From a virus (Duplodnaviria; Heunggongvirae; Uroviricota; Caudoviricetes), in the IMG/VR virus record IMGVR_UViG_2562617113_000011, positions 1-10,451 of that record: 10,451 bases of DNA; one strand, 5' to 3'. This document shows positions 1-10,451 of the stretch, piece by piece (positions within the stretch are counted from its first letter, which is position 1; each line of letters opens with the position of its first letter). The position numbers were made by a program, and so were the translations under genes. A model generated the notes under the pieces. It was not told the DNA's origin. It searched no databases and was given only the letters and a program-made list of their open reading frames with translations.

Positions 1-372
1 TTATCGCCGTAACCGCTCCGGCTTCTTCCACTGGTACGTAATTTTTTCTTTCTCCTGGTACATCTGCACGCGGCGACGGTACGACAACATCTCCAGAACT
101 CTGGTGCGTATGTTGCGTATATCCACGCCATTAAGCTCGATACCGTCACGGCGCATCACCTCAGCCATCACACGCGCGTAATTTTCAGCGGTGACTGTAT
201 CCGGCTGCGTGGCCTGTTCGTCAGCCTGCTGGCTGATTCCGGTAATACTGCGGATTATCCCGAGCGCTTCGGTCTCGGTCATGGTCATGGCCTCCATAGT
301 GATGGCGGGTCCTCCTGGTGGGGTGCCCTGCCACGGGGCGGGAGCATCGCGGAAAAAGGCTAGTTTTTGCAT
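1..372 (-). CDS. Hypothetical protein downstream of the small terminase gene (123 aa as drawn; more likely about 93 aa from an internal start at 282)
   Basis: Complete ORF whose stop codon is the first 3 nt of the window. The ATG at 372 has no convincing SD; the in-frame ATG at 282 is preceded by GGAGG with 8-nt spacing. No family recognised; a short QPDTV motif weakly recalls lambda gpFI but is insufficient to call. Confidence 0.45.
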   Translation of the reverse strand: MQKLAFFRDAPAPWQGTPPGGPAITMEAMTMTETEALGIIRSITGISQQADEQATQPDTVTAENYARVMAEVMRRDGIELNGVDIRNIRTRVLEMLSYRRRVQMYQEKEKITYQWKKPERLRR

Positions 373-491
373 TTTTATTCGTCATCACCACCAATGCAAT
401 ATATTGATATGACTTGATGTTTTATTTTTCGGTGTCGATTTCGATTGTTTTTTGTTCATCACTGACGCATAACTCCCACCAGCGCAACGCT

Positions 492-515
492 GAAAGCCAG
501 TCAGTAAACTGGCTT
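492..515 (-). other. Stem-loop (8-bp stem AAGCCAGT/ACTGGCTT, 6-nt loop) just 3' of the small terminase gene; weak U-tract
   Basis: Perfect inverted repeat seen directly in the 162-nt gap between the TerS stop (534) and the next gene. On the minus strand it is followed only by UUUCAG, so it is an attenuator or stabilising hairpin rather than a strong terminator. Confidence 0.3.
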
Positions 516-533
516 CGGTCATTGTGCACTACG

Positions 534-1076
534 TTACTTGTCTTTATCCGGCTGAAACTTATCAGGCACATTTCCGGTAGTTTCCATCAGATAATCGGAC
601 AGCATTCGCGGGATGTTTTCATCAAGTTTTGTGCATGCGTTACAGGCTCTGACAACTTCTTTTTTCAGGCCATCCAGCATGGCGGGGGTCATCTGTGGGA
701 AGCGCCTTTGCATGGTAAGCGGCAGGCTGTCCATGATAGATGAAATCTGACTCGCCAGTTTTGAAAGCGCATATATACAAAATTCCGTACTAATCACGTC
801 GCCGCGTTCGCGCTCGTTTTTAAGCTCCTGCGCCTCCGCCTGCGCTGTCAACAATCTGATCCTGACTCGCAAAAGCTCATCATTATCAATCTCGCCTTTG
901 TCGTCTGTAATCTGGTTAATTGCATTGCTAACCCGATTGTCTATTACGCTGGCAACATCATAAAACGCCTCGCGGCCTTTACGTTCAACGGGAGTCACTC
1001 CCCACTTGTCGAACGCTGTCGCACTTACACGGCAGCTTTGCGCCATGTTTTTTTTGTTCATCAGGTGCGATTTCAT
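534..1076 (-). CDS. Terminase small subunit, lambda Nu1-like (180 aa)
   Basis: The C-terminal two-thirds aligns closely to my recollection of lambda gpNu1 (e.g. AQAEAQELKN, LPLTMQRRFP, LDENIPRMLSDY); the N-terminal DNA-binding region is divergent. Start chosen at the ATG at 1076 (GGGGA SD, 5-nt spacing); alternatives are GTG 1088 and ATG 1061. Confidence 0.8.
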   Translation of the reverse strand: MKSHLMNKKNMAQSCRVSATAFDKWGVTPVERKGREAFYDVASVIDNRVSNAINQITDDKGEIDNDELLRVRIRLLTAQAEAQELKNERERGDVISTEFCIYALSKLASQISSIMDSLPLTMQRRFPQMTPAMLDGLKKEVVRACNACTKLDENIPRMLSDYLMETTGNVPDKFQPDKDK

Positions 1077-1181
1077 CAATATCCCCACTTAAGTAATGTT
1101 TCAGGTTGGTGTATTTGTTTTATCTTTCCCTTTTTATTCATAGAGATAGAGCGAACAACAAAACCACCACCAGCACCCGAA

Positions 1182-1228
1182 AAAGGCTCATAAATAGCGA
1201 AAACCCGCGCGTCTGCCGCCCCGTAACG
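1182..1228 (-). other. Lambda-like cos site (cosN-like 12-mer GGGCGGCAGACG at 1210-1221 on the minus strand, flanked by lambda-identical sequence)
   Basis: The minus strand reads CCGTTACG-GGGCGGCAGACG-CGCGGGTTTTCGCTATTTATGA. As I recall it, lambda reads GTTACG-GGGCGGCGACCT-CGCGGGTTTTCGCTATTTATGA, so the 22 nt after the 12-mer are identical and 5 of 12 overhang positions differ. It lies directly upstream of the Nu1-like gene, as in lambda. Confidence 0.6.
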
Positions 1229-1277
1229 GGTCCATATGCCGGAAAGGACCCGCCAGCCAGAGCGGGCCCTAATTTCA

Positions 1278-1622
1278 TCAACCAATCAACTTATTGCGCC
1301 CTTTCAGGGCATTACGCCTGGCGCGTTCAATCTTGAGGCATAACGCCGCATCAGGTTTTTCGGGGGTGGGAACAAGGCAATAATTTGATGCGCGCGGAAT
1401 GTTGTTAATCCACGCAACAACTTCGCTTAAATACCATGCCTTGCGGCCTTTCGTAACCTGTACGCGTTCGGGGAACTCTCCGCGAGCCTCAAGGTTTAGC
1501 AATGTGCGACGGCTAAGGGTTGTAAGCTCCACTACCTGATCCATATCGACAAGACGCTCGCTTAAGCGCATTTTATCATCGATATCTAATAGCTCTCGTA
1601 GCTGACTATCTCTTTCAATCAT
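1278..1622 (-). CDS. AlpA/excisionase-family HTH DNA-binding protein embedded in the head/packaging operon (114 aa)
   Basis: The central segment LVDMDQVVELTTLSRRTLLNLEARGEFPERVQVTKGRKAWYLSEVVAWI fits the AlpA/Vis pattern (hydrophobic-T-x-LSRsT-x(6)-G-FP ... W ... EV-x-W). ATG at 1622 lies 9 nt after the D-like stop, with GAGG overlapping that stop. Confidence 0.55.
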   Translation of the reverse strand: MIERDSQLRELLDIDDKMRLSERLVDMDQVVELTTLSRRTLLNLEARGEFPERVQVTKGRKAWYLSEVVAWINNIPRASNYCLVPTPEKPDAALCLKIERARRNALKGRNKLIG

Positions 1623-1631
1623 TCTCGTACC

Positions 1632-1973
1632 TCACACACGTGCCAGCGGCTGAACAGAAATACCTGAGCCAACAAACGCAGCAACTTTTGCTGATAGTTG
1701 TGTTACAGACTCAGGCCAGTTCAGAGCATCAACATTTAAGACGCCGGTTTTATAAACCTGAGCCTGCGTTTTTGTCGCTGTATCGATTTGTACAGCGGAA
1801 ACATAAACAGCTTTGCCTGCGCTCGTTCCATCCCATACCACCAGTGCACCAGTTACATCTTCTTGCATCAGTGGCGTAAACGCAGGGATTACCCCTTTAT
1901 TGGCTGAAAATATCCCCAGCGTAGTAACCAGTGCTTCAGTGCCAGCCATGAGTTCAGTGTAATGAGTAGCCAT
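1632..1973 (-). CDS. Head decoration protein, lambda gpD-like (113 aa)
   Basis: Size and motifs match remembered lambda gpD (PAFTPLM, VVWDGT, LNWPE, AFVGSGISV). Sits immediately downstream of the E-like gene (9-nt gap) with an AAGGGGGAG SD. Confidence 0.75.
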   Translation of the reverse strand: MATHYTELMAGTEALVTTLGIFSANKGVIPAFTPLMQEDVTGALVVWDGTSAGKAVYVSAVQIDTATKTQAQVYKTGVLNVDALNWPESVTQLSAKVAAFVGSGISVQPLARV

Positions 1974-1982
1974 TGCTCCCCC

Positions 1983-3023
1983 TTAACCAATGCGAACGGT
2001 AACAAAACGATTGATGCGGGCCGGTATTGGCTGTGGTGCAGAGTGCGTTTGTACGTACTCAATAGCCGGATCACCTGGTACGATGTAATTTTTCGGCGCA
2101 AGTTCGGCTTTAGTAAGCCCCATTCTGATTAACTCAGGATCCTGAATGCCACCGTAGGCAACGATGCCCTGTAATGATGTGTTGCCAAGCACCATCAAAT
2201 CAGGATCAAGGAAATATCTTTCAGTTCCGTCCTCGTCGGTATAACGTCCGCTATATACCACAATAGCAACATCGCCAACGTAACCCTTGAAGCTTACAGA
2301 ATCCCCAAGATTTTTCAGGGCCGTTTCAAGAACGGAATTAGATCCCCGTCGAGTATCAAGGCAATCTTTTACTGCTTTAAAGGCGCGGTATTTTTTCCAT
2401 ACGTTGCGGCCCATTACGATGATATTTGTAGTACCTTCGCTGATTTCTGCGTACTCTTCGATGTCATCGTTTGGATCAAATGTTGATAAATCTCTACCGC
2501 CCCACTCCGTACCGCCGAACTGCGTGATAATATTTTGTGGTTTTATATTCCAGTCCAGTTCATAACGTTCAATTCCATCGCCTTCAATGATATTTTTCCC
2601 CGTTGTAACCGCCTGAACAGCAAGCCACTCAATACGCGCACGAATTGCCTGCGCTTGTCTTACTAACGCTCGCTTTATTTTGAAACTGCGTGATGAATAT
2701 GCATTGAATTGTTCCGGTGATACGCCTGGTTGACGAACGGCTATTTTATTTGGGTCGATACTACTTTTTGGCTTCATATAGCCAGGACGAATTACTTTTG
2801 ATTCGTAGCCTTCATCGCGTGAGACTTTGCTACCAACCATAGGGGAACAAAATGCAGCCATCGGGATGTCTGGATCGTCAATAATATCAAGCGCAATATC
2901 CCGCGTCTCAAATGTAACGACTCGCTTAAAAAACAGGTTTATAAATAAAGAATTAATCTGCCATTGAATATCTTCGGCATTAACAACCTGTATTAACATA
3001 GCTGGTGAATATAAATCACTCAT
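1983..3023 (-). CDS. Major capsid protein, lambda gpE-like (346 aa)
   Basis: Long collinear similarity to remembered lambda gpE (NIITQFGGTEWGGRDLSTFDPNDDIEEYA, FKAVKDCLDTRRGSNSVLETA, GDVAIVVYSGRY, MVLGNT, VPGDPA); 346 aa against 341 aa for gpE; AAGAGG SD 4 nt before the ATG. Confidence 0.85.
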   Translation of the reverse strand: MSDLYSPAMLIQVVNAEDIQWQINSLFINLFFKRVVTFETRDIALDIIDDPDIPMAAFCSPMVGSKVSRDEGYESKVIRPGYMKPKSSIDPNKIAVRQPGVSPEQFNAYSSRSFKIKRALVRQAQAIRARIEWLAVQAVTTGKNIIEGDGIERYELDWNIKPQNIITQFGGTEWGGRDLSTFDPNDDIEEYAEISEGTTNIIVMGRNVWKKYRAFKAVKDCLDTRRGSNSVLETALKNLGDSVSFKGYVGDVAIVVYSGRYTDEDGTERYFLDPDLMVLGNTSLQGIVAYGGIQDPELIRMGLTKAELAPKNYIVPGDPAIEYVQTHSAPQPIPARINRFVTVRIG

Positions 3024-3207
3024 ATAACCTCTTAATACTTAGTAAAAGTGTCGCGTTAATTTTATCATCTGCCTTGTTCGGCATCTTTATGCATTGCTAT
3101 GCAATAGTGTGCAAAGTTTCAATCTTCGTTTATTTATCCGGCGTTACGTGTCATTCTGTACAGCGTTACAAGTTCAAAGACATAAATTATTCTCTTTGGT
3201 GATGAAA

Positions 3208-3234
3208 GGGTCGGAATATTCCGGCCTTTTTTTT
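3208..3234 (+). terminator. Intrinsic terminator on the plus strand (hairpin GGUCGGAAUAUUCCGGCC followed by T8)
   Basis: Palindrome CGGAATATTCCG extended by G-C and G-U pairs, then TTTTTTTT at 3227-3234. No convincing plus-strand CDS lies upstream. Confidence 0.55.
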
Positions 3235-3256
3235 GCGTGGTGTGACGGACTAAACT

Positions 3257-3281
3257 GATAAAAGCCGGATTGCTCCGGCTT
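3257..3281 (-). terminator. Intrinsic terminator ending the SSB operon (stem AAGCCGGA/TCCGGCTT, loop TTGC, then UUUUAU on the minus strand)
   Basis: Perfect 8-bp GC-rich stem located 15 nt after the SSB stop; the minus-strand read is followed by a T-run. Confidence 0.6.
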
Positions 3282-3295
3282 CTGTCACTCGTTGC

Positions 3296-3718
3296 TTAAA
3301 ACGGTATGTTATCCCCGTACGGATCATCGTTACCCGCCTGTTGTTTTGCCCTGTTCAGTGCGTCAGTAGCCTGCCCCTGCTGGCCTTTTTTGCCGCCCGG
3401 TCGCACCGTTCTCGCACTGATTACGCTGTCTGCGATAACCTGCCAGCCCTGCCGCGTTTCGCCGTTCTGGCCTGTCCACTGGCTTACCTGCATGTTACCC
3501 GCCACGCTCACCAGTTCGCCTTTGTGGTGTTTTGCCAGTGCGTCGGCCTGTCTGCCAAACGCCAGGACAGATAACCACATCGTCGCCGTTCCGTCATTTG
3601 CCTGGCTGCATGGCAGGGGAACCGCCATACTCGCCATCGCCATTTGTGTCCCTTTGCTGGTGGTCTTTAACTGCGGGTCAGCCACCAGCCGCCCGTAAGC
3701 CGCTATCTGTGCTGTCAT
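3296..3718 (-). CDS. ssb: Single-stranded DNA-binding protein (140 aa)
   Basis: OB-fold SSB pattern (GRLVADPQLK ... WLSVLAFGRQAD ... GELVSVAGNMQVSQWTGQNGETRQ), a Gly/Gln-rich linker and a C-terminal DDPYGDNIPF resembling the canonical SSB acidic tip DDDIPF. ATGA start/stop overlap with the upstream gene. Confidence 0.75.
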   Translation of the reverse strand: MTAQIAAYGRLVADPQLKTTSKGTQMAMASMAVPLPCSQANDGTATMWLSVLAFGRQADALAKHHKGELVSVAGNMQVSQWTGQNGETRQGWQVIADSVISARTVRPGGKKGQQGQATDALNRAKQQAGNDDPYGDNIPF

Positions 3719-3993
3719 GCTGTCTGCTCTCCGGTTTTAACATTGATGGTTGTCACCTGTTCCGCTTCGGCAATCTCCCGTTCTGTCAGCGTGGCAAAGT
3801 TTGCTGCCGCCGTTGTCATGAATGCGCTTATCAGGTCGGGATGTTCCTTCGCGTATCCTTCCCCCGCGTGGCGGTCTATCGTTCTGATTGCCACCTTTAA
3901 AGCGTGCTCTGTCATGTCTAACGCGCGATATTTCGGCTCTGTTCTGTCTCTGCGTTTTTTGAGTGATTTATTAAATCTCCCTGAAGTGTGCAT
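3715..3993 (-). CDS. Hypothetical protein, basic N-terminus (92 aa), translationally coupled to ssb
   Basis: ORF with a GAGGGGG SD upstream of the ATG at 3993; its stop overlaps the ssb start (ATGA). No family recognised. Confidence 0.5.
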   Translation of the reverse strand: MHTSGRFNKSLKKRRDRTEPKYRALDMTEHALKVAIRTIDRHAGEGYAKEHPDLISAFMTTAAANFATLTEREIAEAEQVTTINVKTGEQTA

Positions 3994-4040
3994 ATTTATT
4001 TTTACCCCCTCGTTTAAAAAGTTTTGAGTTGTGCCTCCCC

Positions 4041-4268
4041 TTGTCTACCTTATCTACCTTAGTGGCCCCTATGCCAGTAATGGCGCGGCTTTCAGCGGGG
4101 TAGAGTGCTTTTATCCACTATCTACTCCGTATCTACCTCCCTGTCTGATTCAGGTAAAATCAGGTAGAGAGGGTAGACAGTGGGTAGACTGTAAAAAAAG
4201 GCTGTCTACCTAACTTAATATACTGAATTAAATGTATTTTCCTTTACTCAGGTAGACAGGGTAGACAG
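4041..4268. repeat. Iteron cluster, putative origin of replication: about 9-bp GGTAGACAG/CTGTCTACC repeats in both orientations flanking an AT-rich spacer
   Basis: Direct copies at 4163-4171 (GGTAGAGAG), 4172-4180, 4183-4191 (GGTAGACTG), 4251-4259 and 4260-4268. Inverted copies at 4041-4049 and 4202-4210, with degenerate TCTACC units at 4051-4058, 4119-4127 and 4131-4137. AT-rich stretch at 4211-4250. Lies immediately 3' of the primase gene. Confidence 0.65.
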
Positions 4269-4281
4269 CAATTACAAAAAA

Positions 4282-6036
4282 TTATAAAAACGCGTCGCAC
4301 TCGTCTGTTGTTATTGCGTTAGTCTGCGTTACCCCCTTAACTTTCCGCGTAATATATTCATGTCCATAAACTTTTGCGGCAGGCTTCATAGCCTTGCCAA
4401 AGTCATTTACGTTTAGCGGTTTGCTCCTGCCTGCGTATGCCATAAACGCCAGATAGACGCGGTAAAGGCTGTTCCTGGTCGTGTACTTCACTGAATCACC
4501 ACCGCCCCCCATCATCAGGCCGCGCGCTTCCTCCAGAAAATTCAGGAACTGGCAAAACTCAATAACCGGATCCGTCTGTTGCTTTATTGCCAGTGCTTCA
4601 TCACCGTCACGCTGTTCCAGTAGTAAAGCCCGTGCCTTCTCAGGGTCGGTAAAGTTCGCCAGCAATCGGCGGATAATAACGGGGATTTCAGCCGCAATCT
4701 TTTCCGGTAGCTCCCTGTCTTTTTCGGCATCACTGACGATATTGTCGAAACGGAAAATCACGCGACGACGTGCCACACCTCCGGCCCGTTCGGTGAATAT
4801 CATCGGGTTGTTGTTGGTCGCCAGCACCACCGCCCTGATTACCGCCGTGAAACGCTTTTCATATTTCGGGTTAATTTCCACGGGGTCGCCGCCTGTGATT
4901 TTCTTGATGCCCGTTCCTTCGCCTGTATATTTCGGCTGGTCAGCCAGGACGATAAGACGACTCCCGACAACCTGCGCACGTCCACCAGCATCATCAAGCG
5001 ATGTCATTTCAGCGCTTACCGTGTTCTGTTTCCCTGCCAGAAGGCTGGCTATGTGTGTGAATGTACTTTTACCGCTCCCGCCGTCTCCGGTGGCCTCAAT
5101 AAACATCTGCCAGTCGTACCGGTTCGCCATAATCATGTACAGCGCGGCACATATACGCATCATCTTGCGCGGGTCTTTTCCGGCTGCGTGCTCAAGCCAT
5201 TTATGAAAGTTTGGCGCGTTATCGCGGATGTTTTCCCCTGGTGCTGGTAGCGTGTACTCAATGCCGTTGTGCGTGGTGATCCAGTTCTCCGGCGTGTGCG
5301 GGGAAAATTCCCCCGTTTTCAGGTCAAGCGCACCATTGGCGAACGGCAGCAAATCGCCGGACGGCTCGCCCATTGGTTCGGCAATAACTTTTAACGCTTC
5401 CACGGCGTTATTGATTACGCGCTTGCTGAAAGTGGCCCTGTGCTCTGAATAGATCGCCACCATTTCGCGGCTAAGTTCCATTGTGCTGACCGGACACCAT
5501 ACCCCGCCGCGCCATACGTGAACGATTTCACTTTCAGGATGTACGCAAACGCCATCAAAGCGATCGGCAAGCAGCTGCGCGCGCTCACTGTCCGCCATCT
5601 GCGAAAGTTGCGCCTTTTGCTTTACCGGAAGCTCAATGACCAGACCATCAGAAAGATTCTGGCGCTCACGGGCCAGATATTCGCGCCAGTTCTCCACCTT
5701 CTGACCGTGCATACCGTCAGGGTAAAAATTTGCATCCTGTACGCCTGCCGCCGCCAGCTTCTGACCAATTGCCTTTATCATTACAGGCGCAAGATATCCG
5801 GCCCTGTATATGCGTGCTGATTTTCGGCCTTCCGGCACAATTTGCAGCTTATCCAGTTCGGATAACTGCTGCTCCCCAAGCCACACAGGAGGCTCATTAT
5901 CTCCGGCCATACGCGCATCATGTTCCTGCCATTGTTTCGCGTGTGCCCAGGCATCACTACCCGCAAAAATAATGACTTCTGTTCCTTTGTGTTTTATGCC
6001 GCGTGACTGCTGTTTTACGTTCGGTGCCAGTTTCAT
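4282..6036 (-). CDS. P4-family primase/helicase replication initiator (584 aa; Walker A GDGGSGKST, SF3-type NTPase)
   Basis: P-loop GDGGSGKST and a following hydrophobic Walker-B-like stretch RLIVLADQ; overall resemblance to the helicase/C-terminal part of P4 alpha and PICI pri-rep proteins; N-terminal region possibly toprim-like. ATGA overlap with the upstream gene. Confidence 0.85.
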   Translation of the reverse strand: MKLAPNVKQQSRGIKHKGTEVIIFAGSDAWAHAKQWQEHDARMAGDNEPPVWLGEQQLSELDKLQIVPEGRKSARIYRAGYLAPVMIKAIGQKLAAAGVQDANFYPDGMHGQKVENWREYLARERQNLSDGLVIELPVKQKAQLSQMADSERAQLLADRFDGVCVHPESEIVHVWRGGVWCPVSTMELSREMVAIYSEHRATFSKRVINNAVEALKVIAEPMGEPSGDLLPFANGALDLKTGEFSPHTPENWITTHNGIEYTLPAPGENIRDNAPNFHKWLEHAAGKDPRKMMRICAALYMIMANRYDWQMFIEATGDGGSGKSTFTHIASLLAGKQNTVSAEMTSLDDAGGRAQVVGSRLIVLADQPKYTGEGTGIKKITGGDPVEINPKYEKRFTAVIRAVVLATNNNPMIFTERAGGVARRRVIFRFDNIVSDAEKDRELPEKIAAEIPVIIRRLLANFTDPEKARALLLEQRDGDEALAIKQQTDPVIEFCQFLNFLEEARGLMMGGGGDSVKYTTRNSLYRVYLAFMAYAGRSKPLNVNDFGKAMKPAAKVYGHEYITRKVKGVTQTNAITTDECDAFL

Positions 6037-6332
6037 TTTTTACCCCTGAATCCGTTAATCATGGTTTTCAGCTTCTGGATGTTTGCCCGTGCCCTGGCGT
6101 TGCTGGTGGGCACGTTATGCGGCGCGGTCTGTACCAGAGAAAAATCACGGGCAAACTGATAAACAGGCATCACGCAATCATATTCGTAACCTTCACGGCG
6201 GTAAGTTACGCGCCGTTCCTCCACGCCCTTAATCATTACCGTGCCGCCGTACTGGTCGCGGTAAATATCACCGCGCATGAATTTAGTGCGAGTTTTGCCG
6301 CTGGCAGTTAAGCCAGGATATTTAAGTTTCAT
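6033..6332 (-). CDS. Hypothetical protein immediately upstream of and coupled to the primase (99 aa)
   Basis: GGAGA SD 9 nt before the ATG at 6332; stop overlaps the primase ATG. Its position matches that of P4 Cnr-type replication modulators, but this is positional inference only. Confidence 0.5.
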   Translation of the reverse strand: MKLKYPGLTASGKTRTKFMRGDIYRDQYGGTVMIKGVEERRVTYRREGYEYDCVMPVYQFARDFSLVQTAPHNVPTSNARARANIQKLKTMINGFRGKK

Positions 6333-6337
6333 TATTT

Positions 6338-6571
6338 TTATTCTCCGGTGTGCTGTTCTTTATATCTGTCGTGCAATAGGTCTATTTCTTGTAGTTCCAT
6401 TATTACAGGCTCAAGAAGCGTTATTAATGCCGTGACAATTCGGGATTTTTGTTTGTCGCGTTCATTATCGCCAAGCGTTTCAAGCCATAAGCGCAATATT
6501 TCCAACATGTTTTCACTGTGAGAAAGTGCAAGAAATGCGCGGTCTATTGTTTCGTGGTAAATATCACGCAT
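6338..6571 (-). CDS. Hypothetical small helical protein (77 aa)
   Basis: GGGGA SD 5 nt before the ATG at 6571; 1-nt gap after the upstream gene's stop. No family recognised. Confidence 0.5.
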   Translation of the reverse strand: MRDIYHETIDRAFLALSHSENMLEILRLWLETLGDNERDKQKSRIVTALITLLEPVIMELQEIDLLHDRYKEQHTGE

Positions 6572-6572
6572 A

Positions 6573-7025
6573 TTAATCCCCGTCCGTCGCTTTTCTTAAA
6601 ATAACCTCTGTCACGAAATCAGCATAATCGGCGGCAATATTCAGTACATCAAGTCCCGTTGATTTATATTCTTTCGTGGAAAGTAAGAAAAAATCCGCTC
6701 TAATAAGTTCTGGCATTGACGAAAGCGCATCAGCCGCATCACCAGGAACGCCGGAAAATTCCTGTTTCAGGGCATTAAAACGATCATCACGCATAACCCC
6801 CCCATTTTCACAATCAGTAATCAGGATGGCTTTAGCCTCATTCAGTGCCATATCAGCACTAAATTGCATAACAGCCAGTGAGTGAGGAACGAAAGCCCCG
6901 GCATATTCTGTTTCGCTGGTGGCGTGCTTATGTGCCCTGTCCGCGATAACAGAAATATCAATCAGCGCGTGCATCAGCGTTTTGATGGCTTCGGCGGCTG
7001 CGTCCTGACGGGTGTTATTGCACAT
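6573..7025 (-). CDS. Hypothetical protein (150 aa)
   Basis: Strong AGGAGG SD 6 nt before the ATG at 7025. The longer 300-aa ORF in the track is an R/P/S-rich upstream extension and was rejected. Start overlaps the stop of the upstream gene by 11 nt. Confidence 0.55.
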   Translation of the reverse strand: MCNNTRQDAAAEAIKTLMHALIDISVIADRAHKHATSETEYAGAFVPHSLAVMQFSADMALNEAKAILITDCENGGVMRDDRFNALKQEFSGVPGDAADALSSMPELIRADFFLLSTKEYKSTGLDVLNIAADYADFVTEVILRKATDGD

Positions 7026-7557
7026 GGCGCACCTCCTGACGAATACGGGCGGCGAATACAGCGACACAACCGGACGGGCAATGGTTACGCGCTTCGCGTT
7101 CCGTCCAGGCGGTGACGTGGATGATTTGGGATTCTGACGCGCCAAAGATGATAAAGCGCCAGATAAAGACAGTGTGAGAATGTATAAGGGTAGGGATAGT
7201 AGCCATGTTGGCAGCCTCCTTTGACAGTGAAGAATTTCCACCGCAGGAAACGCCAATTTCGCTGGCGGTGGACTGAACGGGGTTGGCGTAACCGGCGTCA
7301 AAGGGAACCGGCGCTTCCGAAGAAGCCCCCGCCCAGCCCACCATAACTTTGATGTGAGCGAATGCGGACGATAAAAAAGACGCTGGCGCGTCATATATCG
7401 CCTTTGACATTTCCAAGACGCCAATCCCGGCACCAGATTTTGCTGGTGCGGGTAAATCATAGCCCTGGCTGGCATTGGCGATCAACAGGTTTTTTACATC
7501 GGGTTTATTCAGGTTGTGCGAGTCCCGCCCTTGCGGGTGTGTGGTATGATTTAACAT
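7015..7557 (-). CDS. First gene of the replication operon: Ash-family-like N-terminal region fused in frame to an Icd-like (host cell division inhibitor-like) C-terminal region (180 aa)
   Basis: The N-terminal half carries motifs I associate with P4-like Ash proteins (AKSGAGIGV, MVGWAG, PVPFDAGYANPVQSTASEIGVS). The C-terminal 63 aa (FIWRF ... ESQIIHVTAWTEREARNHC ... AVFAARIRQEV) resembles Icd-like proteins and has its own AAGGAGG SD before an internal ATG at 7206. GAGGT SD before the ATG at 7557. Family assignment is from memory. Confidence 0.5.
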   Translation of the reverse strand: MLNHTTHPQGRDSHNLNKPDVKNLLIANASQGYDLPAPAKSGAGIGVLEMSKAIYDAPASFLSSAFAHIKVMVGWAGASSEAPVPFDAGYANPVQSTASEIGVSCGGNSSLSKEAANMATIPTLIHSHTVFIWRFIIFGASESQIIHVTAWTEREARNHCPSGCVAVFAARIRQEVRHVQ

Positions 7558-7649
7558 AGCTACCTCGATACTTCTGCTATCGTTGGTGGTTAGAAGCCCT
7601 GCGAGTGGTAACGACACTTGCGGGGCTTTGCATTTATGCGCCTTGATAA

Positions 7650-7730
7650 TTTTAAGGTGTGGCCCACTATATGTTTTAGGTGTGGCCCACGTCAAGAGTT
7701 TTATTTGTGCTTTTTCTGTGTATACTGTCC
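7650..7730. promoter_or_regulatory. Divergent promoter/operator region: two 13-bp direct repeats AGGTGTGGCCCAC (7655-7667, 7678-7690) overlapping candidate sigma70 promoters on both strands
   Basis: Minus strand: -35 TTGACG (plus 7690-7695), 18-bp spacer, -10 TATAGT (plus 7666-7671), so both repeats fall in the -35/spacer/-10 region. Plus strand: -10 TATACT (7721-7726) with upstream TGTG, 30 nt before the RHH-like gene. Each repeat contains the dyad GTGG-C-CCAC. Confidence 0.55.
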
Positions 7731-7756
7731 CCCACCAATCCACCAGAGGAATAGAA

Positions 7757-7936
7757 ATGGCAACGGGTACAACAAACGCAAAATCACAAGCTCTAAAGGC
7801 TCGTGTACCACACGAAATAGTAAACGCCATGGAATCAGTGAAAGAATCAGGCGAAAGCACATCACAATTCATCATTACGTCAATGCAAGGCGAGATCAAA
7901 CGCCGCCAGCGGCGCAAGGCCAAAGAGCAGGAGTAA
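7757..7936 (+). CDS. Small DNA-binding-like protein, possibly ribbon-helix-helix (59 aa); candidate repressor acting at the adjacent repeats
   Basis: GAGGAA SD 6 nt before the ATG; the N-terminal segment KSQALKARVPHEIVNAMESV resembles an Arc/CopG-type strand-helix; basic C-terminal tail. Fold is inferred, not computed. Confidence 0.55.
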   Translation: MATGTTNAKSQALKARVPHEIVNAMESVKESGESTSQFIITSMQGEIKRRQRRKAKEQE

Positions 7937-7993
7937 CCATCACCAGCGCTGTGGTGCGGTGAACTGTGGCGCACTGGGTTACAGGTATCTACG

Positions 7994-8191
7994 ATGACTG
8001 ACAAATCATTAAAGAAATTATCCTCATCCAGGAAAAAACAACGCAAAAATGCGGTAAGCGAACAAGAACAGGAGAGATTTGCGCCATGTGCGTTTGCCCT
8101 TGAGAAGTTCTTAAAAGAGTACAGGCGCACAAAAATGGGGTCGCATACCTGGAAAACATCGCGGCATGGCAATGTTAAAGAGCAGGAATAG
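7994..8191 (+). CDS. Hypothetical highly basic small protein (65 aa); coding status uncertain
   Basis: ORF following the RHH-like gene in the same orientation with a weak SD (AGGT, 7-nt spacing); K/R-rich, no motif recognised. A plus-strand terminator follows at 8295-8322. Confidence 0.35.
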   Translation: MTDKSLKKLSSSRKKQRKNAVSEQEQERFAPCAFALEKFLKEYRRTKMGSHTWKTSRHGNVKEQE

Positions 8192-8294
8192 CCCACCAGC
8201 AAGCCAGCACACTGATCACATTGCCCACCAGCCGCAAATGTGGCATTGTTGGCAATGCTCATGCGTTGGGGATAACGTGTAGCTTGTGTCGAAG

Positions 8295-8322
8295 GGCCAC
8301 CGTAGCGGGTGGCCTTTGTTTT
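8295..8322 (+). terminator. Intrinsic terminator for the small plus-strand operon (stem GGCCACC/GGTGGCC, then TTTGTTTT)
   Basis: 7-bp GC stem with a 6-nt loop followed by a T-rich tract on the plus strand only. Confidence 0.55.
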
Positions 8323-8360
8323 GCCTGTTATCCGGCAATTGTGGCGCTTCGCTACACGGT

Positions 8361-8446
8361 TGATATAATCCCACTGCACTGATTCATTTTTTGCGCAGTA
8401 GGTTAATTGTTCGCAAGGGCGCTCCGGCAACGGGGCGCTTTTTGTT
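8361..8446 (+). ncRNA. Candidate small RNA unit: extended -10 promoter (TGaTATAAT, 8361-8369) followed about 50 nt later by a strong intrinsic terminator (8419-8446)
   Basis: Perfect TATAAT preceded by TGn; hairpin GCGCUCCG-GCAA-CGGGGCGC (GNRA-type loop) followed by TTTTTGTT; no ATG-initiated ORF between them. Lies on the opposite strand just past the 3' end of alpA. Confidence 0.3.
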
Positions 8447-8473
8447 ATGTTCATCGCGTTACGCCTCACACCA

Positions 8474-8680
8474 TTACGCAGCCGTTCCGCGCGCTTCTTC
8501 CTCGCGCTCTTTCAGCCAGGCCAGCACTTCATCTTCATACCAGCCAACACGACGCAGACCGATTTTGAAGCCTTTCGGGAATTTTCCTGCGTTGATCATG
8601 TCCTGTAGCGAACTGTCTGCCTTGATGCGCAGAATATTTTTTACTTCCTGACGGGTAAGTATTTTTCTGATTGTTTCCAC
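8474..8680 (-). CDS. alpA: AlpA/Vis-family phage transcriptional regulator / excisionase-like protein (68 aa)
   Basis: HTH pattern LRIKADSSLQDMINAGKFPKGFKIGLRRVGWYEDEVLAWL typical of AlpA; GTG start at 8680 with GAGGT SD 8 nt upstream; position next to the integrase. Confidence 0.8.
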   Translation of the reverse strand: METIRKILTRQEVKNILRIKADSSLQDMINAGKFPKGFKIGLRRVGWYEDEVLAWLKEREEEARGTAA

Positions 8681-8813
8681 TATGTTTTACCTCGTTAATC
8701 CGGCGTATTCCGGTGATAAATACGGTAAAACAGGGCTGGGCGGGAAAAACAGTACCCACCGTTTTAAAACGGTATCCACTGTTTTTTATCTCATTGATTA
8801 CGCTTTTCTTTCT

Positions 8814-8846
8814 GCAAAAAAATAGCGACCGCAAAGGGCCGCTATT
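8814..8846 (-). terminator. Intrinsic terminator after the integrase-proximal small gene (10-bp stem with one mismatch, then a U6-8 tract on the minus strand)
   Basis: Inverted repeat AATAGCGACC/GGCCGCTATT (8821-8846) followed on the minus strand by an A-run on the plus strand (8815-8820), i.e. U-tract. Confidence 0.55.
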
Positions 8847-8850
8847 GTGA

Positions 8851-9093
8851 TTACCGTTTCCACTTCTTAGGTCGCCCACCGCATTTAAGGCTGGTGGGCC
8901 TCAGCACCTTGTCGATGCTTTCAGCCAGATTTTTCGATGCACCACGCGAGCGCAAAAAACTGACTACCTCGTGTTTTGTGGGGGCTGTTGATTTGTCTTC
9001 CGGATCGTATGTTGACCAGAATTCACGATTTGCCATTAACGCCAGTTGCAGCCCTTCGCCGCAAGCAGGGGATACCTTTTCATTGAAAAACAC
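8851..9093 (-). CDS. Hypothetical protein downstream of the integrase (80 aa), basic C-terminus GGRPKKWKR
   Basis: GTG start at 9093 with AAGGAG SD 8 nt upstream; followed by an intrinsic terminator. No family recognised. Confidence 0.45.
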   Translation of the reverse strand: MFFNEKVSPACGEGLQLALMANREFWSTYDPEDKSTAPTKHEVVSFLRSRGASKNLAESIDKVLRPTSLKCGGRPKKWKR

Positions 9094-9209
9094 CTGGATA
9101 GCTCCTTGAATTTCATGATTTGGGTGACTCCTCTCTGTATTGGGTGGGTTGTGGCGATTATACGATGGTTTAGCATGGTTTGCATCGCTTTTACTGGTTT
9201 TTTGTACAG

Positions 9210-10451
9210 TTACACGGCACGGATACCCCTTTTACCACTGGCTATGGTCACTCCGGTAGCTGCGGCCTCTACAAATTCCCCCCACCAGCGCATAAGCACC
9301 ACGCGCTTTTCCAGGTAGTTACTTCGGTTATATGCTCGCCTTACCTCGTTCGTGTCCACGTGTGCGAGTGCGGCCTCGATTACGTCCGGCTCGAATCCTT
9401 CCTCGTTCGCTGCTGTACTGAATATGGCGCGTAATCCGTGAGACACCAGCACACCAGCGTATCCCATCCGGCGCAATGCAGCGTTAGCGGTCTGGCTGTT
9501 CATTGGCAGCATTGGATTTTTAAGGCTGGGAAAAACATGTTCCCTGTGTGCGCTGATTGGCTTCATTGTTTCCAGTACAGCCATCGCCTGACCGCAAAGA
9601 GGGATCACATGGTCACGGCGCATCTTCATGCGTCCGGCTGGAATCGTCCATGTTTCGGCATCGAGATCTATTTCTTCCCAGCGTGCGGCGGCTGCTTCGG
9701 CTGGGCGTGCTACGGTCAGCAGTTGCCACTCGATTAGCAATCTGGTTTGCCGTTCTATGCTGGCGACCGATAAATCGTGCATTAGCTGCGGTAGCTGTTC
9801 CGGTCGGATGGTTGGCATATGCTTTTTAGTGGGGGAAGGGAATGCCTTGCGGACGTTCGCGGCGGTGTTGATGTCAATCAGCCCACTGTTGGCAGCAAAA
9901 TCCATCACTTCATTGATGCGTTGTAAAACGCGTTTCAGAGTTTCCAGGTTGCCGCGTGCTTTAATGGGTGTGAGTATCTCAACAAAGCGGCGAGCGGTGA
10001 GGGTATCTATTGGCGTGTTTCCGATGTACGGGAATACGTATTTTTCCAGGGATCGCCAGATATCCTTAATCGTGTTGTAAGCCAGATTCTGGCCTTTTTT
10101 CATCTCGTACCAGTCCAAGGCAACTTTTTCGAACGTGTTGCCCTTTTTCCTGCTCTCTGCTTCACGTTTCCGGCGTTCGTAGTCCTGTGGGTCAGTTCCC
10201 TTTGCTATGAGTGACCTGTATTCATTCCGTCGCTCTCTGGCATCAGACAGGGAAACATCATTTAGCGATCCAAGGCTGATAATAGTCCGTTTTTTATCTG
10301 CCGGGCGGTAGTACGTAAAACGCCAGATTTTTGATCCGGAGGGCTTCACCAGAAGAAATAATCCTCCGCCATCCTGCAGGGTATATTCCTTTTCCCCTGG
10401 TCGTGCGTTTTTGATCTCCGTAATAGTTAGTGGGGTGGTTTTTCGTGCCAT
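9210..10451 (-). CDS. int: P4-type tyrosine integrase (site-specific recombinase, 413 aa)
   Basis: N-terminus MARKTTPLTITEIKNARPGEKEYTLQDGGGLFLLVKPSGSKIWRFTYY is typical of P4/CP4-57-type integrases; C-terminal catalytic region with HGLR and the RRAYNRSNY tyrosine motif. The start codon is the last 3 nt of the window. Confidence 0.9.
   Translation of the reverse strand: MARKTTPLTITEIKNARPGEKEYTLQDGGGLFLLVKPSGSKIWRFTYYRPADKKRTIISLGSLNDVSLSDARERRNEYRSLIAKGTDPQDYERRKREAESRKKGNTFEKVALDWYEMKKGQNLAYNTIKDIWRSLEKYVFPYIGNTPIDTLTARRFVEILTPIKARGNLETLKRVLQRINEVMDFAANSGLIDINTAANVRKAFPSPTKKHMPTIRPEQLPQLMHDLSVASIERQTRLLIEWQLLTVARPAEAAAARWEEIDLDAETWTIPAGRMKMRRDHVIPLCGQAMAVLETMKPISAHREHVFPSLKNPMLPMNSQTANAALRRMGYAGVLVSHGLRAIFSTAANEEGFEPDVIEAALAHVDTNEVRRAYNRSNYLEKRVVLMRWWGEFVEAAATGVTIASGKRGIRAV

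Follow-up and report, generated by a model that had tools for sequence, protein, structure and literature searches.

A putative ribbon-helix-helix repressor-operator switch in the control region of an EcCICFT073-type phage satellite

We analyzed a 10,451-nucleotide stretch of viral DNA (positions 1 to 10,451 of IMG/VR record IMGVR_UViG_2562617113_000011; hereafter, the window), focusing on the region between a leftward replication operon and a divergent gene for a 59-aa protein, p59, to which an earlier sequence-only reading had drawn attention. We consider it probable that this region is the control region of a phage-inducible chromosomal island (PICI) of the EcCICFT073 type, in which p59, a ribbon-helix-helix (RHH) protein, represses the leftward promoter P_L through two operators, O1 and O2, limits its own synthesis through a third, O3, and reads the sequence GTG-N5-CAC. 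Judging from sequence, the most likely role of p59 is repression of the leftward operon together with control of its own gene, much as for Mnt of phage P22. The open reading frames (ORFs), domains and gene order of the window are those of a phage satellite, a Gram-negative PICI: int, alpA and pri-rep share one orientation, captured late genes are present, and no tail or lysis genes were found among the ORFs and domains of the window. Membership of the EcCICFT073 type is indicated by the gene order of that prototype and by a nearly identical control module. EcCICFT073 is the prototype Gram-negative PICI, and the paper describing it calls its global repressor unclear in the main text (Fillol-Salom et al. 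2018, PMC6092414).

Exact copies of AGGTGTGGCCCAC occur only twice in the window, both read on the plus strand, as O1 and O2 (Table 1), and copies with three mismatches occur at about the chance rate. The sequence-only reading had reported two exact copies 23 bp apart; the copies are as described, but 23 bp is the distance from start to start, and the gap between them is 10 bp. The repeat stretches, imperfectly, to 22 nt (ATAATTTTAAGG.. / ATATGTTTTAGG..), and within each copy is a 9-bp near-palindrome, GTGG-C-CCAC. Among 400 simulated windows of the same dinucleotide content, 5 contained an exact 13-mer repeated directly inside 60 nt (p about 0.01). The repeat alone is thus weak evidence, and as such repeats arise in about 1% of simulated windows, it might be taken for a chance duplication without function; however, it is retained, with co-variation specific to each class, in over 100 distinct related sequences, which already refutes that reading and leaves it practically no probability. 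The comparative sequence data confirm that O1 and O2 are real.

Both copies lie on P_L, as had been claimed for the candidate promoter TTGACG-18-TATAGT. Its -35 hexamer occupies 7695-7690 and its -10 hexamer 7671-7666, with an 18-nt spacer between them and an A-rich stretch upstream on the transcribed strand. Of the 18 spacer bases, 12 fall within O2, as does the final base of the -35 hexamer, and O1 covers the final two bases of the -10 hexamer and the expected start site. Conservation and co-variation, described below, agree with the proposal that the repeats are operators at positions suited to repressing P_L. While both proposed operators stand, a third had been missed: O3, a degenerate copy directly after the -10 hexamer of the rightward promoter P_R, which implies autoregulation and which we infer to be the site at which p59 regulates itself. 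The full-match, restored form of O3 would read GTGGCCCAC. P_R has a good -10 but a poor -35 region within a T-rich stretch, and it was missed by the promoter scan because of this weak -35. As the center of O2 lies near -48 of P_R, positive autoregulation at low occupancy via O2 is possible, by analogy with lambda P_RM or P22 Mnt.

The comparison set was assembled by p59-based retrieval, starting with 11 loci from other genera (10 of which were used) and extending to IMG/VR contigs, and comprises 213 loci with 116 distinct module sequences. Their layout is conserved: a hairpin, O1, O2 abutting a CGTCAA/CTTCAA -35, the T-rich stretch, TATACT, O3, the ribosome-binding site and the ATG. The P_L -35 (CGTCAA/CTTCAA on the plus strand) is kept in all classes, as is the P_R -10 (TATACT, or TATAGT, TATGCT or CATACT), which lies about 30 nt before the ATG. 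The O2 11-mer has its start 77 nt ahead of the RHH gene's ATG in nearly all related loci, a few being shifted by 1 nt, and O1 occupies the equivalent position in every class, in either orientation. Within the class of the window, the invariant blocks are O1 with the -10, O2 with the -35 and TATACT with O3, while the spacers and flanks have drifted apart; inside O1 and O2 only the dyad center varies, and O1 is unchanged in 14 distinct sequences of this class save for a central C/T. O3 has the exact class core in most lineages (e.g., CTGTGGCCCAC in L002 and CTGTCAGCCAC in L033) and is an exact copy in a lineage of 80% identity, and the two-mismatch form, CTGTCCCCCAC in the window, is kept in an E. 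coli sub-lineage that includes EcCICFT073. Two departures from this layout were seen: in the QTVAA class (named, like the others, by residues 11-15 of p59; also L147) the third site lies beside the -35 and not after the P_R -10, and two QKVQA loci (L030 and L037) have an O2 with a 4-bp core (GTGGAGGCAC).

Of 5426 complete E. coli genomes, 1364 gave matches, many of them only partial, to a 901-bp query around the module. Neither the DNA of the module nor, by tblastn, its protein was found in the deposited phage collection. E. coli STEC316 has a control region of 98.5% identity adjoining tRNA-Pro. In EcCICFT073, O1, O2, O3, the hairpin and TGGTATGAT, an extended -10-like element discussed below, are identical to those of the window, and its YlcI/YnfO gene (C_RS30120) encodes a protein 98% identical to p59. 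Its gene order is also the same (int, alpA, then a hypothetical gene and the YlcI/YnfO gene on the opposite strand, Icd-like, DUF4222, primase, SSB, PerC, capsid and decoration), although EcCICFT073 has another AlpA and another integrase and lacks the C4/isrK cassette described below. The YlcI/YnfO gene, the 57-aa gene next to it and the Icd-like gene of EcCICFT073 (L217, NC_004431.1, 10243-11053) carry the late-added tags C_RS30120, C_RS30800 and C_RS30125. The small genes were probably missing from the annotation used in the 2018 study, whose main text, as searched, makes no mention of an RHH protein or of the neighboring small genes (PMC6092414).

Across the 213 loci, the operator consensus is the 11-bp GTG-N5-CAC, and all three operator copies change jointly between lineages. 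The sole hypervariable stretch of p59 is formed by residues 11-15, between the invariant S10 and R16, and this stretch maps one-to-one on the N5 core: QALKA goes with TGGCC, QSVTA with TCTTA, KKLEA with TCAGC, QKLQA with GAATC, QQLNA with AATCG and QTVAA with TTAAA. Residues 12 and 14 together agree with the core class at an adjusted Rand index (ARI) of 0.95, a value reached in none of 2000 permutations, as compared with 0.14 for AlpA clusters. The specificity residues of the window are A12 and K14, and the co-variation of these two positions with the operator core extends over about 20 variants. Residue 14 follows the symmetric bases at +/-1 (K with G/G, Q with A/A, D/E with C/C and A with T/T), K12 pairs with G/G at +/-2, and the dyad center is free. 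These pairings fit established amino acid-base preferences and are those to be expected from direct readout by a two-fold symmetric ribbon. On this comparative evidence, p59 is by far the best candidate for the operator-binding protein, in agreement with the earlier nomination of the 59-aa RHH-like protein as a repressor candidate.

The operators lie only 20-100 bp from the co-varying codons, and linkage between them inflates the association, which weighs against our interpretation. Sites and codons less than 100 bp apart would be inherited jointly, so that the co-variation could reflect linkage only, with a host or helper factor or a structural feature of the promoter behind the sites and p59 diverging independently. 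We give this explanation very little credence. Variation is limited to five residues of the predicted DNA-facing strand and to five central bases, in frameworks that are otherwise conserved, and for this reason linkage alone is an insufficient explanation; in addition, the residue-base pairings are canonical and symmetric about the dyad, and a host or helper factor acting in trans could not follow about 20 variants.

The same data bear on the idea that AlpA binds the repeats as activator or loading elements and that the 59-aa protein is unrelated to them. In EcCICFT073, AlpA is an activator of downstream genes and is required for induction, as described in the main text of the 2018 paper (PMC6092414), and alpA of the window lies 800 bp upstream of P_L in the same orientation. 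However, AlpA identity and operator class are dissociated both ways: AlpAs 97-100% identical to that of the window accompany four different operator classes, and the TGGCC class, to which the window belongs, contains AlpAs of 34-100% identity. EcCICFT073 itself combines identical operators with a different AlpA, and sites in the spacer and at the start of P_L occupy repressing rather than activating positions. We therefore regard binding by AlpA as highly improbable. The second gene of the rightward operon (p65), the integrase, Ash/Icd and the primase are dissociated from operator class in the same manner as AlpA, and AlpA, p65, p80, the integrase, Ash/Icd, p146, p77, DUF4222 and the primase were all rejected as specificity partners on these grounds. 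An iteron/origin or integrase arm-site reading of the repeats was likewise discarded, as the sites do not co-vary with the primase or the integrase and their positions are locked to the promoter.

p59 belongs to the NCBIfam YlcI/YnfO family NF041551 (68 bits against a cut-off of 30, residues 9-50), and RefSeq gives the YlcI/YnfO name to its homologues in STEC316 and CFT073. The family is compact, since a search of 1.84 billion proteins gives 90 representatives at E <= 1e-3, and our literature search found no paper assigning a function to it. An AlphaFold2 monomer model built with 29 homologues (predicted local distance difference test score, 85) has an extended N-terminal segment and two helices. 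A beta-strand at about residues 11-17 is followed by helix A (19-28) and helix B (35-58), the predicted order being that of the RHH superfamily fold. The strand alternates as expected, with mostly hydrophobic or small residues at 13, 15 and 17, variable and mostly polar residues at 12 and 14, and the invariant R16; the G-x-S/T motif at the start of helix B is present as G32-E-S-T, followed by F38 and I39. In an hhalign alignment, K9-G32 of p59 fall on K6-N29 of Arc, so that A12, K14 and R16 coincide with the DNA-contacting Q9, N11 and R13, and R16, P18 and E20 with R13, P15 and E17. The dyad-symmetric base preferences of residues 12 and 14 lend indirect support to a p59 dimer with a two-stranded ribbon. 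Pfam yields no significant family for p59, none of its RHH families passes the threshold, and the evidence from sequence families is weak; the best sub-threshold scores are CB_ParB_C (3e-4, in 6 of 35 members), Arc (0.012) and RHH_5 (0.15). The JGI label "aspartate ammonia-lyase" and a weak Lyase_1 match were judged spurious.

The sequences show the repeats and that these are conserved, together with the co-variation and the fold, whereas we infer binding, repression, autoregulation and a link to induction. A p59 dimer would insert its two-stranded beta-ribbon into the major groove at each operator (a candidate target DNA being GTGTGGCCCAC), where the invariant Arg16 would contact the invariant outer GTG/CAC and residues 14 and 12 of both subunits would contact core positions +/-1 and +/-2. 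When bound at O2 in the spacer and at O1 over the -10 and the start, p59 would block RNA polymerase at P_L and keep the Ash/Icd-replication operon off; when bound at O3, in the start region of P_R, it would limit its own synthesis, and two mismatches would weaken O3 here. The hypervariable strand/operator pairs, with at least 15 specificities, would define immunity types.

Autoregulating antitoxins and centromere binders are common among RHH proteins, and p59 has weak Pfam matches to CB_ParB_C, HicB-like and PSK_trans_fac and an operator on P_R. p59 might thus bind its sites solely as an autoregulator of the p59-p65 operon, in the manner of an antitoxin or a partition protein, with no role at the replication operon. 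We consider this unlikely, as the spacing of O1 and O2 from the -35, -10 and start of P_L is fixed throughout the classes while both lie 40-70 bp upstream of the P_R -10, and p65, in which no toxin or ParA signature is seen, is missing from many loci or has another gene in its place, whereas the divergent Icd-like/replication operon is the constant partner. p65 matches phrog_21027 only, with no match in Pfam or NCBIfam; it is missing or unrelated in many loci of the same operator class, and is 97% identical in a locus of another class. A type II toxin-antitoxin system with an RHH antitoxin was rejected, as no conserved downstream toxin accompanies p59.

Several observations weigh against assigning p59 the role of repressor. 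The hhalign probability for Arc is only 21%, and PDB searches by Foldseek and by sequence returned nothing for p59; P_R has no recognizable -35; and a constitutive internal promoter together with the C4 RNA could by themselves maintain the immunity of the window. The main text of the EcCICFT073 paper adds a further point: overexpression of AlpA alone triggers excision and replication of the island with no helper (PMC6092414). In EcCICFT073, the RHH protein is therefore no insurmountable block, and any model must let AlpA override it. By the same result, a helper antirepressor is not required, and the helper was described there as inducing alpA transcription (PMC6092414).

The sequence-only reading had presented an RHH repressor as an alternative to the RNA-based immunity of P4, a contrast that the window itself contradicts. 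Both a C4/CI-type RNA and an isrK/seqA-type element, the pair that marks RNA immunity of the P4/P1 type, score above their gathering thresholds (Table 1) inside the Ash frame at the head of the leftward operon, 200 nt downstream of P_L, and the Pfam Ash match overlaps both. The isrK match begins 7 nt beyond the -10 of an internal P_LE-like site, at 7449, and the order of internal promoter, isrK and C4 matches the P_LE/seqA/CI arrangement of P4 (PMC10111431). As these RNAs lie in the leftward operon, the RHH switch would therefore be an additional layer over P4/P1-type RNA immunity and not an alternative to it. The cassette is optional: of 91 related loci 6 contain it, and all 18 class representatives lack it. 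In P4, a regulated promoter further upstream supplies translating transcripts (PMC10111431), and the RHH-controlled P_L would be its positional counterpart: P_L transcripts would carry the beginning of the ash/eta-like frame, whose translation would override termination.

The flagged span (7557-7936) also contains a hairpin (7594-7628) that had been overlooked, as had the C4 and isrK RNAs just to its left. The hairpin has 13 pairs in the RNAalifold structure, nine of them with compensatory changes and many being G-U pairs that exist on the plus strand only, and among 63 distinct sequences the plus strand is the more stable one in 62. Of 62 distinct sequences, 40 have an extended -10-like 9-mer, mostly TGGTATGAT, positioned 45-46 nt ahead of the hairpin anchor; in several other lineages, a TAnnnT hexamer (TATGCT or TATCAT) is seen nearby by eye, and the overlapping N-termini differ. 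The hairpin, its T-rich tail and the conserved extended -10 together lead us to predict a plus-strand antisense RNA of about 80 nt (about 7557-7640), whose span would include both the start codon (7557) of the first P_L gene and its Shine-Dalgarno sequence. Rfam gave no match at this candidate RNA.

A broader proposal, which we advance tentatively and hold to be rather doubtful, is that YlcI/YnfO-type RHH proteins are the missing maintenance repressors of EcCICFT073-type PICIs, that the strand/operator pairs constitute immunity groups, and that induction proceeds by convergent transcription with no antirepressor. Because alpA converges on p59-p65 and the intervening terminators function on the plus strand only, AlpA-driven transcripts could traverse the repressor gene in the antisense direction. 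We speculate that leftward transcripts induced by the helper and driven by AlpA would run antisense through p65-p59 and silence repressor synthesis before entering the icd-replication operon; the cis antisense RNA and, in some islands, the C4 RNA would serve as further locks, and the immunity groups would let several satellites share one cell. Only one genome with two copies of the module was seen, IMG genome 2630968576 (L127 and L184), with the classes KKLEA/TCAGC and QKLQA/GATTC. Two classes in one genome fit with heteroimmunity, but a single case is an anecdote.

Table 1. Features of the window and the basis of each assignment
Feature	Position	Strand	Basis or remark
C4/CI-type antisense immunity RNA	7261-7348	-	Rfam RF01695, 82 bits (gathering 45), E 2e-15, full length
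isrK/seqA-type element	7373-7449	-	Rfam RF01394, 70.5 bits (gathering 50)
Intrinsic terminator ending the isrK/seqA-type element	7392-7373	-	terminator scan
Candidate c4-a1b1 target motifs, overlapping the isrK/seqA-type element	7410-7462	-	RF03163, 39.9 bits, below gathering (46.7)
Internal P_LE-like site, TTGATC-18-TATGAT	7485-7456	-	promoter scan, 9/12
First P_L frame, Ash + Icd-like, 180 aa	7015-7557	-	Pfam, NCBIfam
Extended -10-like element, TGGTATGAT	7542-7550	+	candidate antisense-RNA promoter
Conserved hairpin (7594-7628) with T-rich tail, terminator-like	7594-7640	+	RNAalifold
O1, AGGTGTGGCCCAC, core GTG-TGGCC-CAC	7655-7667		exact copy
O2, AGGTGTGGCCCAC	7678-7690		exact copy
P_L, predicted leftward promoter	7695-7666	-	consensus scan, 10/12 positions
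P_R -10 hexamer TATACT, RHH operon	7721-7726	+	inferred from conserved position
O3, CTGTCCCCCAC, degenerate third copy	7725-7735		directly after P_R -10
p59 gene	7757-7936	+	59-aa ORF, AGAGGAA ribosome-binding site
p65, second gene of rightward operon	7994-8191	+	ORF
Two terminator-like hairpins between p65 and alpA	8292-8317, 8415-8442	+	terminator scan
alpA (AlpA/Vis-type regulator)	8474-8680	-	Pfam Phage_AlpA, 4.5e-8
80-aa gene (p80)			listed between integrase and alpA
Integrase	9210-10451	-	ORF/domain
D5-type primase	4282-6036	-	primase domains

The alpA gene is convergent with the RHH operon, and the two hairpins between p65 and alpA have no T-run on the minus strand. The long minus-strand operon comprises the Ash and Icd frame, small genes, DUF4222, the D5-type primase and SSB. 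The Ash part of the first frame (Pfam Phage_ASH, 3e-18, residues 36-124, about 7186-7452) is of the Bro network and P4 eta/kil-like, and it is followed in frame by an Icd-like cell-division inhibitor part (NCBIfam, 2e-15, residues 131-174); family scans found no match to the Ant antirepressor family in this frame. The STEC316 annotation has a partial Ash pseudogene and a separate Icd-like gene in place of the single frame of the window, and an ATG near 7209 inside the frame (MATIPTLIH...) may be the true icd start. The captured late genes are a major capsid gene, a decoration protein gene, a second AlpA-like gene and a small terminase gene. The second AlpA-like gene lies beside the lambda-like capsid/decoration and small-terminase-like genes (spans 1278-1622, 1632-3023 and 534-1088, all on the minus strand). 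The capsid and decoration genes of EcCICFT073 are the same as these. In EcCIMP1, too, a second alpA is present, and its helper uses it as an excisionase (PMC11773190). The stop codons of p59 and p65 each fall within one copy of a 25-nt direct repeat (80%; 7914-7938 and 8169-8193), and both proteins end in ..KEQE; cassettes may be exchanged by recombination at this repeat. The related islands L005, L007, L008, L032 and L092 contain the Rfam int-alpA RNA motif (RF02996), which was not detected in the window.

The immI region of phage P22 encodes the RHH repressors Mnt and Arc, with the divergent promoters P_mnt and P_ant and the sar antisense RNA. Sequence, promoter scan and conserved loci all suggest a similar arrangement in the window, namely an RHH gene divergent from an operon whose promoter is overlapped by operator sites; the candidate antisense RNA, covering the start of the first P_L gene, resembles sar in being antisense. 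The differences are nevertheless considerable. No sequence-family relationship between the two systems is detectable; P22 has one 17-21-bp operator bound by a tetramer, whereas the window has three separate 11-bp sites; and the switch of the window belongs to a satellite, precedes icd and replication genes where P22 has ant, and is hypervariable in its specificity.

The window resembles the immunity region of P4 and the immI region of P1 (c4-icd-ant) in having C4/CI-type and isrK/seqA-type RNAs nested within a frame of the Ash/eta type; an icd-like gene comes next, and an internal promoter-like site lies shortly before the RNAs. The Ash match overlaps the RNAs in the window as eta overlaps CI in P4, whose immunity region comprises P_LE, seqA, the CI RNA, seqC, the nested kil/eta and the regulated P_LL. 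The upstream promoter of P4 is under Vis and Delta/Ogr, whereas the window has the RHH gene and its operators between alpA and the operon, and tblastn detected no p59 homologue in the deposited phage records, which should include P4. Stl of the Staphylococcus aureus pathogenicity islands and Rpr of Gram-positive PICIs share with p59 a repressor gene divergent from an excision-replication operon and a proposed role in quiescence. However, Stl proteins are much larger helix-turn-helix (HTH) repressors that are inactivated by helper-phage proteins, while p59 is an RHH protein of 59 aa with no additional domain, as opposed to the HTH repressor with a helper-protein-binding domain that typifies Stl; also unlike Stl, the documented helper signal of EcCICFT073 acts on alpA transcription.

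In E. coli K-12, YlcI (DLP12) and YnfO (Qin) fall under the same NF041551 model, and YlcI has an RHH-like sequence pattern but is only 18% identical to p59 (hhalign P = 0.019). The ylcI gene (L093, 6252-6834) is divergent from the terminase gene nohD across a cos-like region of a lambdoid prophage, and no GTG-N5-CAC triplet was seen upstream of it. With 18% identity and no shared operator architecture, the idea that helper YlcI/YnfO homologues poison the satellite repressor through mixed dimers found no support.

By analogy, the mechanism is a familiar one, an RHH repressor-operator switch closest to P22 immI, and what is new is an uncharacterized family, with a specificity code of unusual clarity, in a setting without a known repressor. 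The analysis yields a repressor candidate with base-level operator predictions and a predicted specificity code, present in the model island EcCICFT073. If true, it would explain the silence of these islands and recast what AlpA must overcome, it would provide natural orthogonal pairs of small repressors and operators for synthetic biology, and it would mean that P4-type RNA immunity can be stacked beneath a protein switch.

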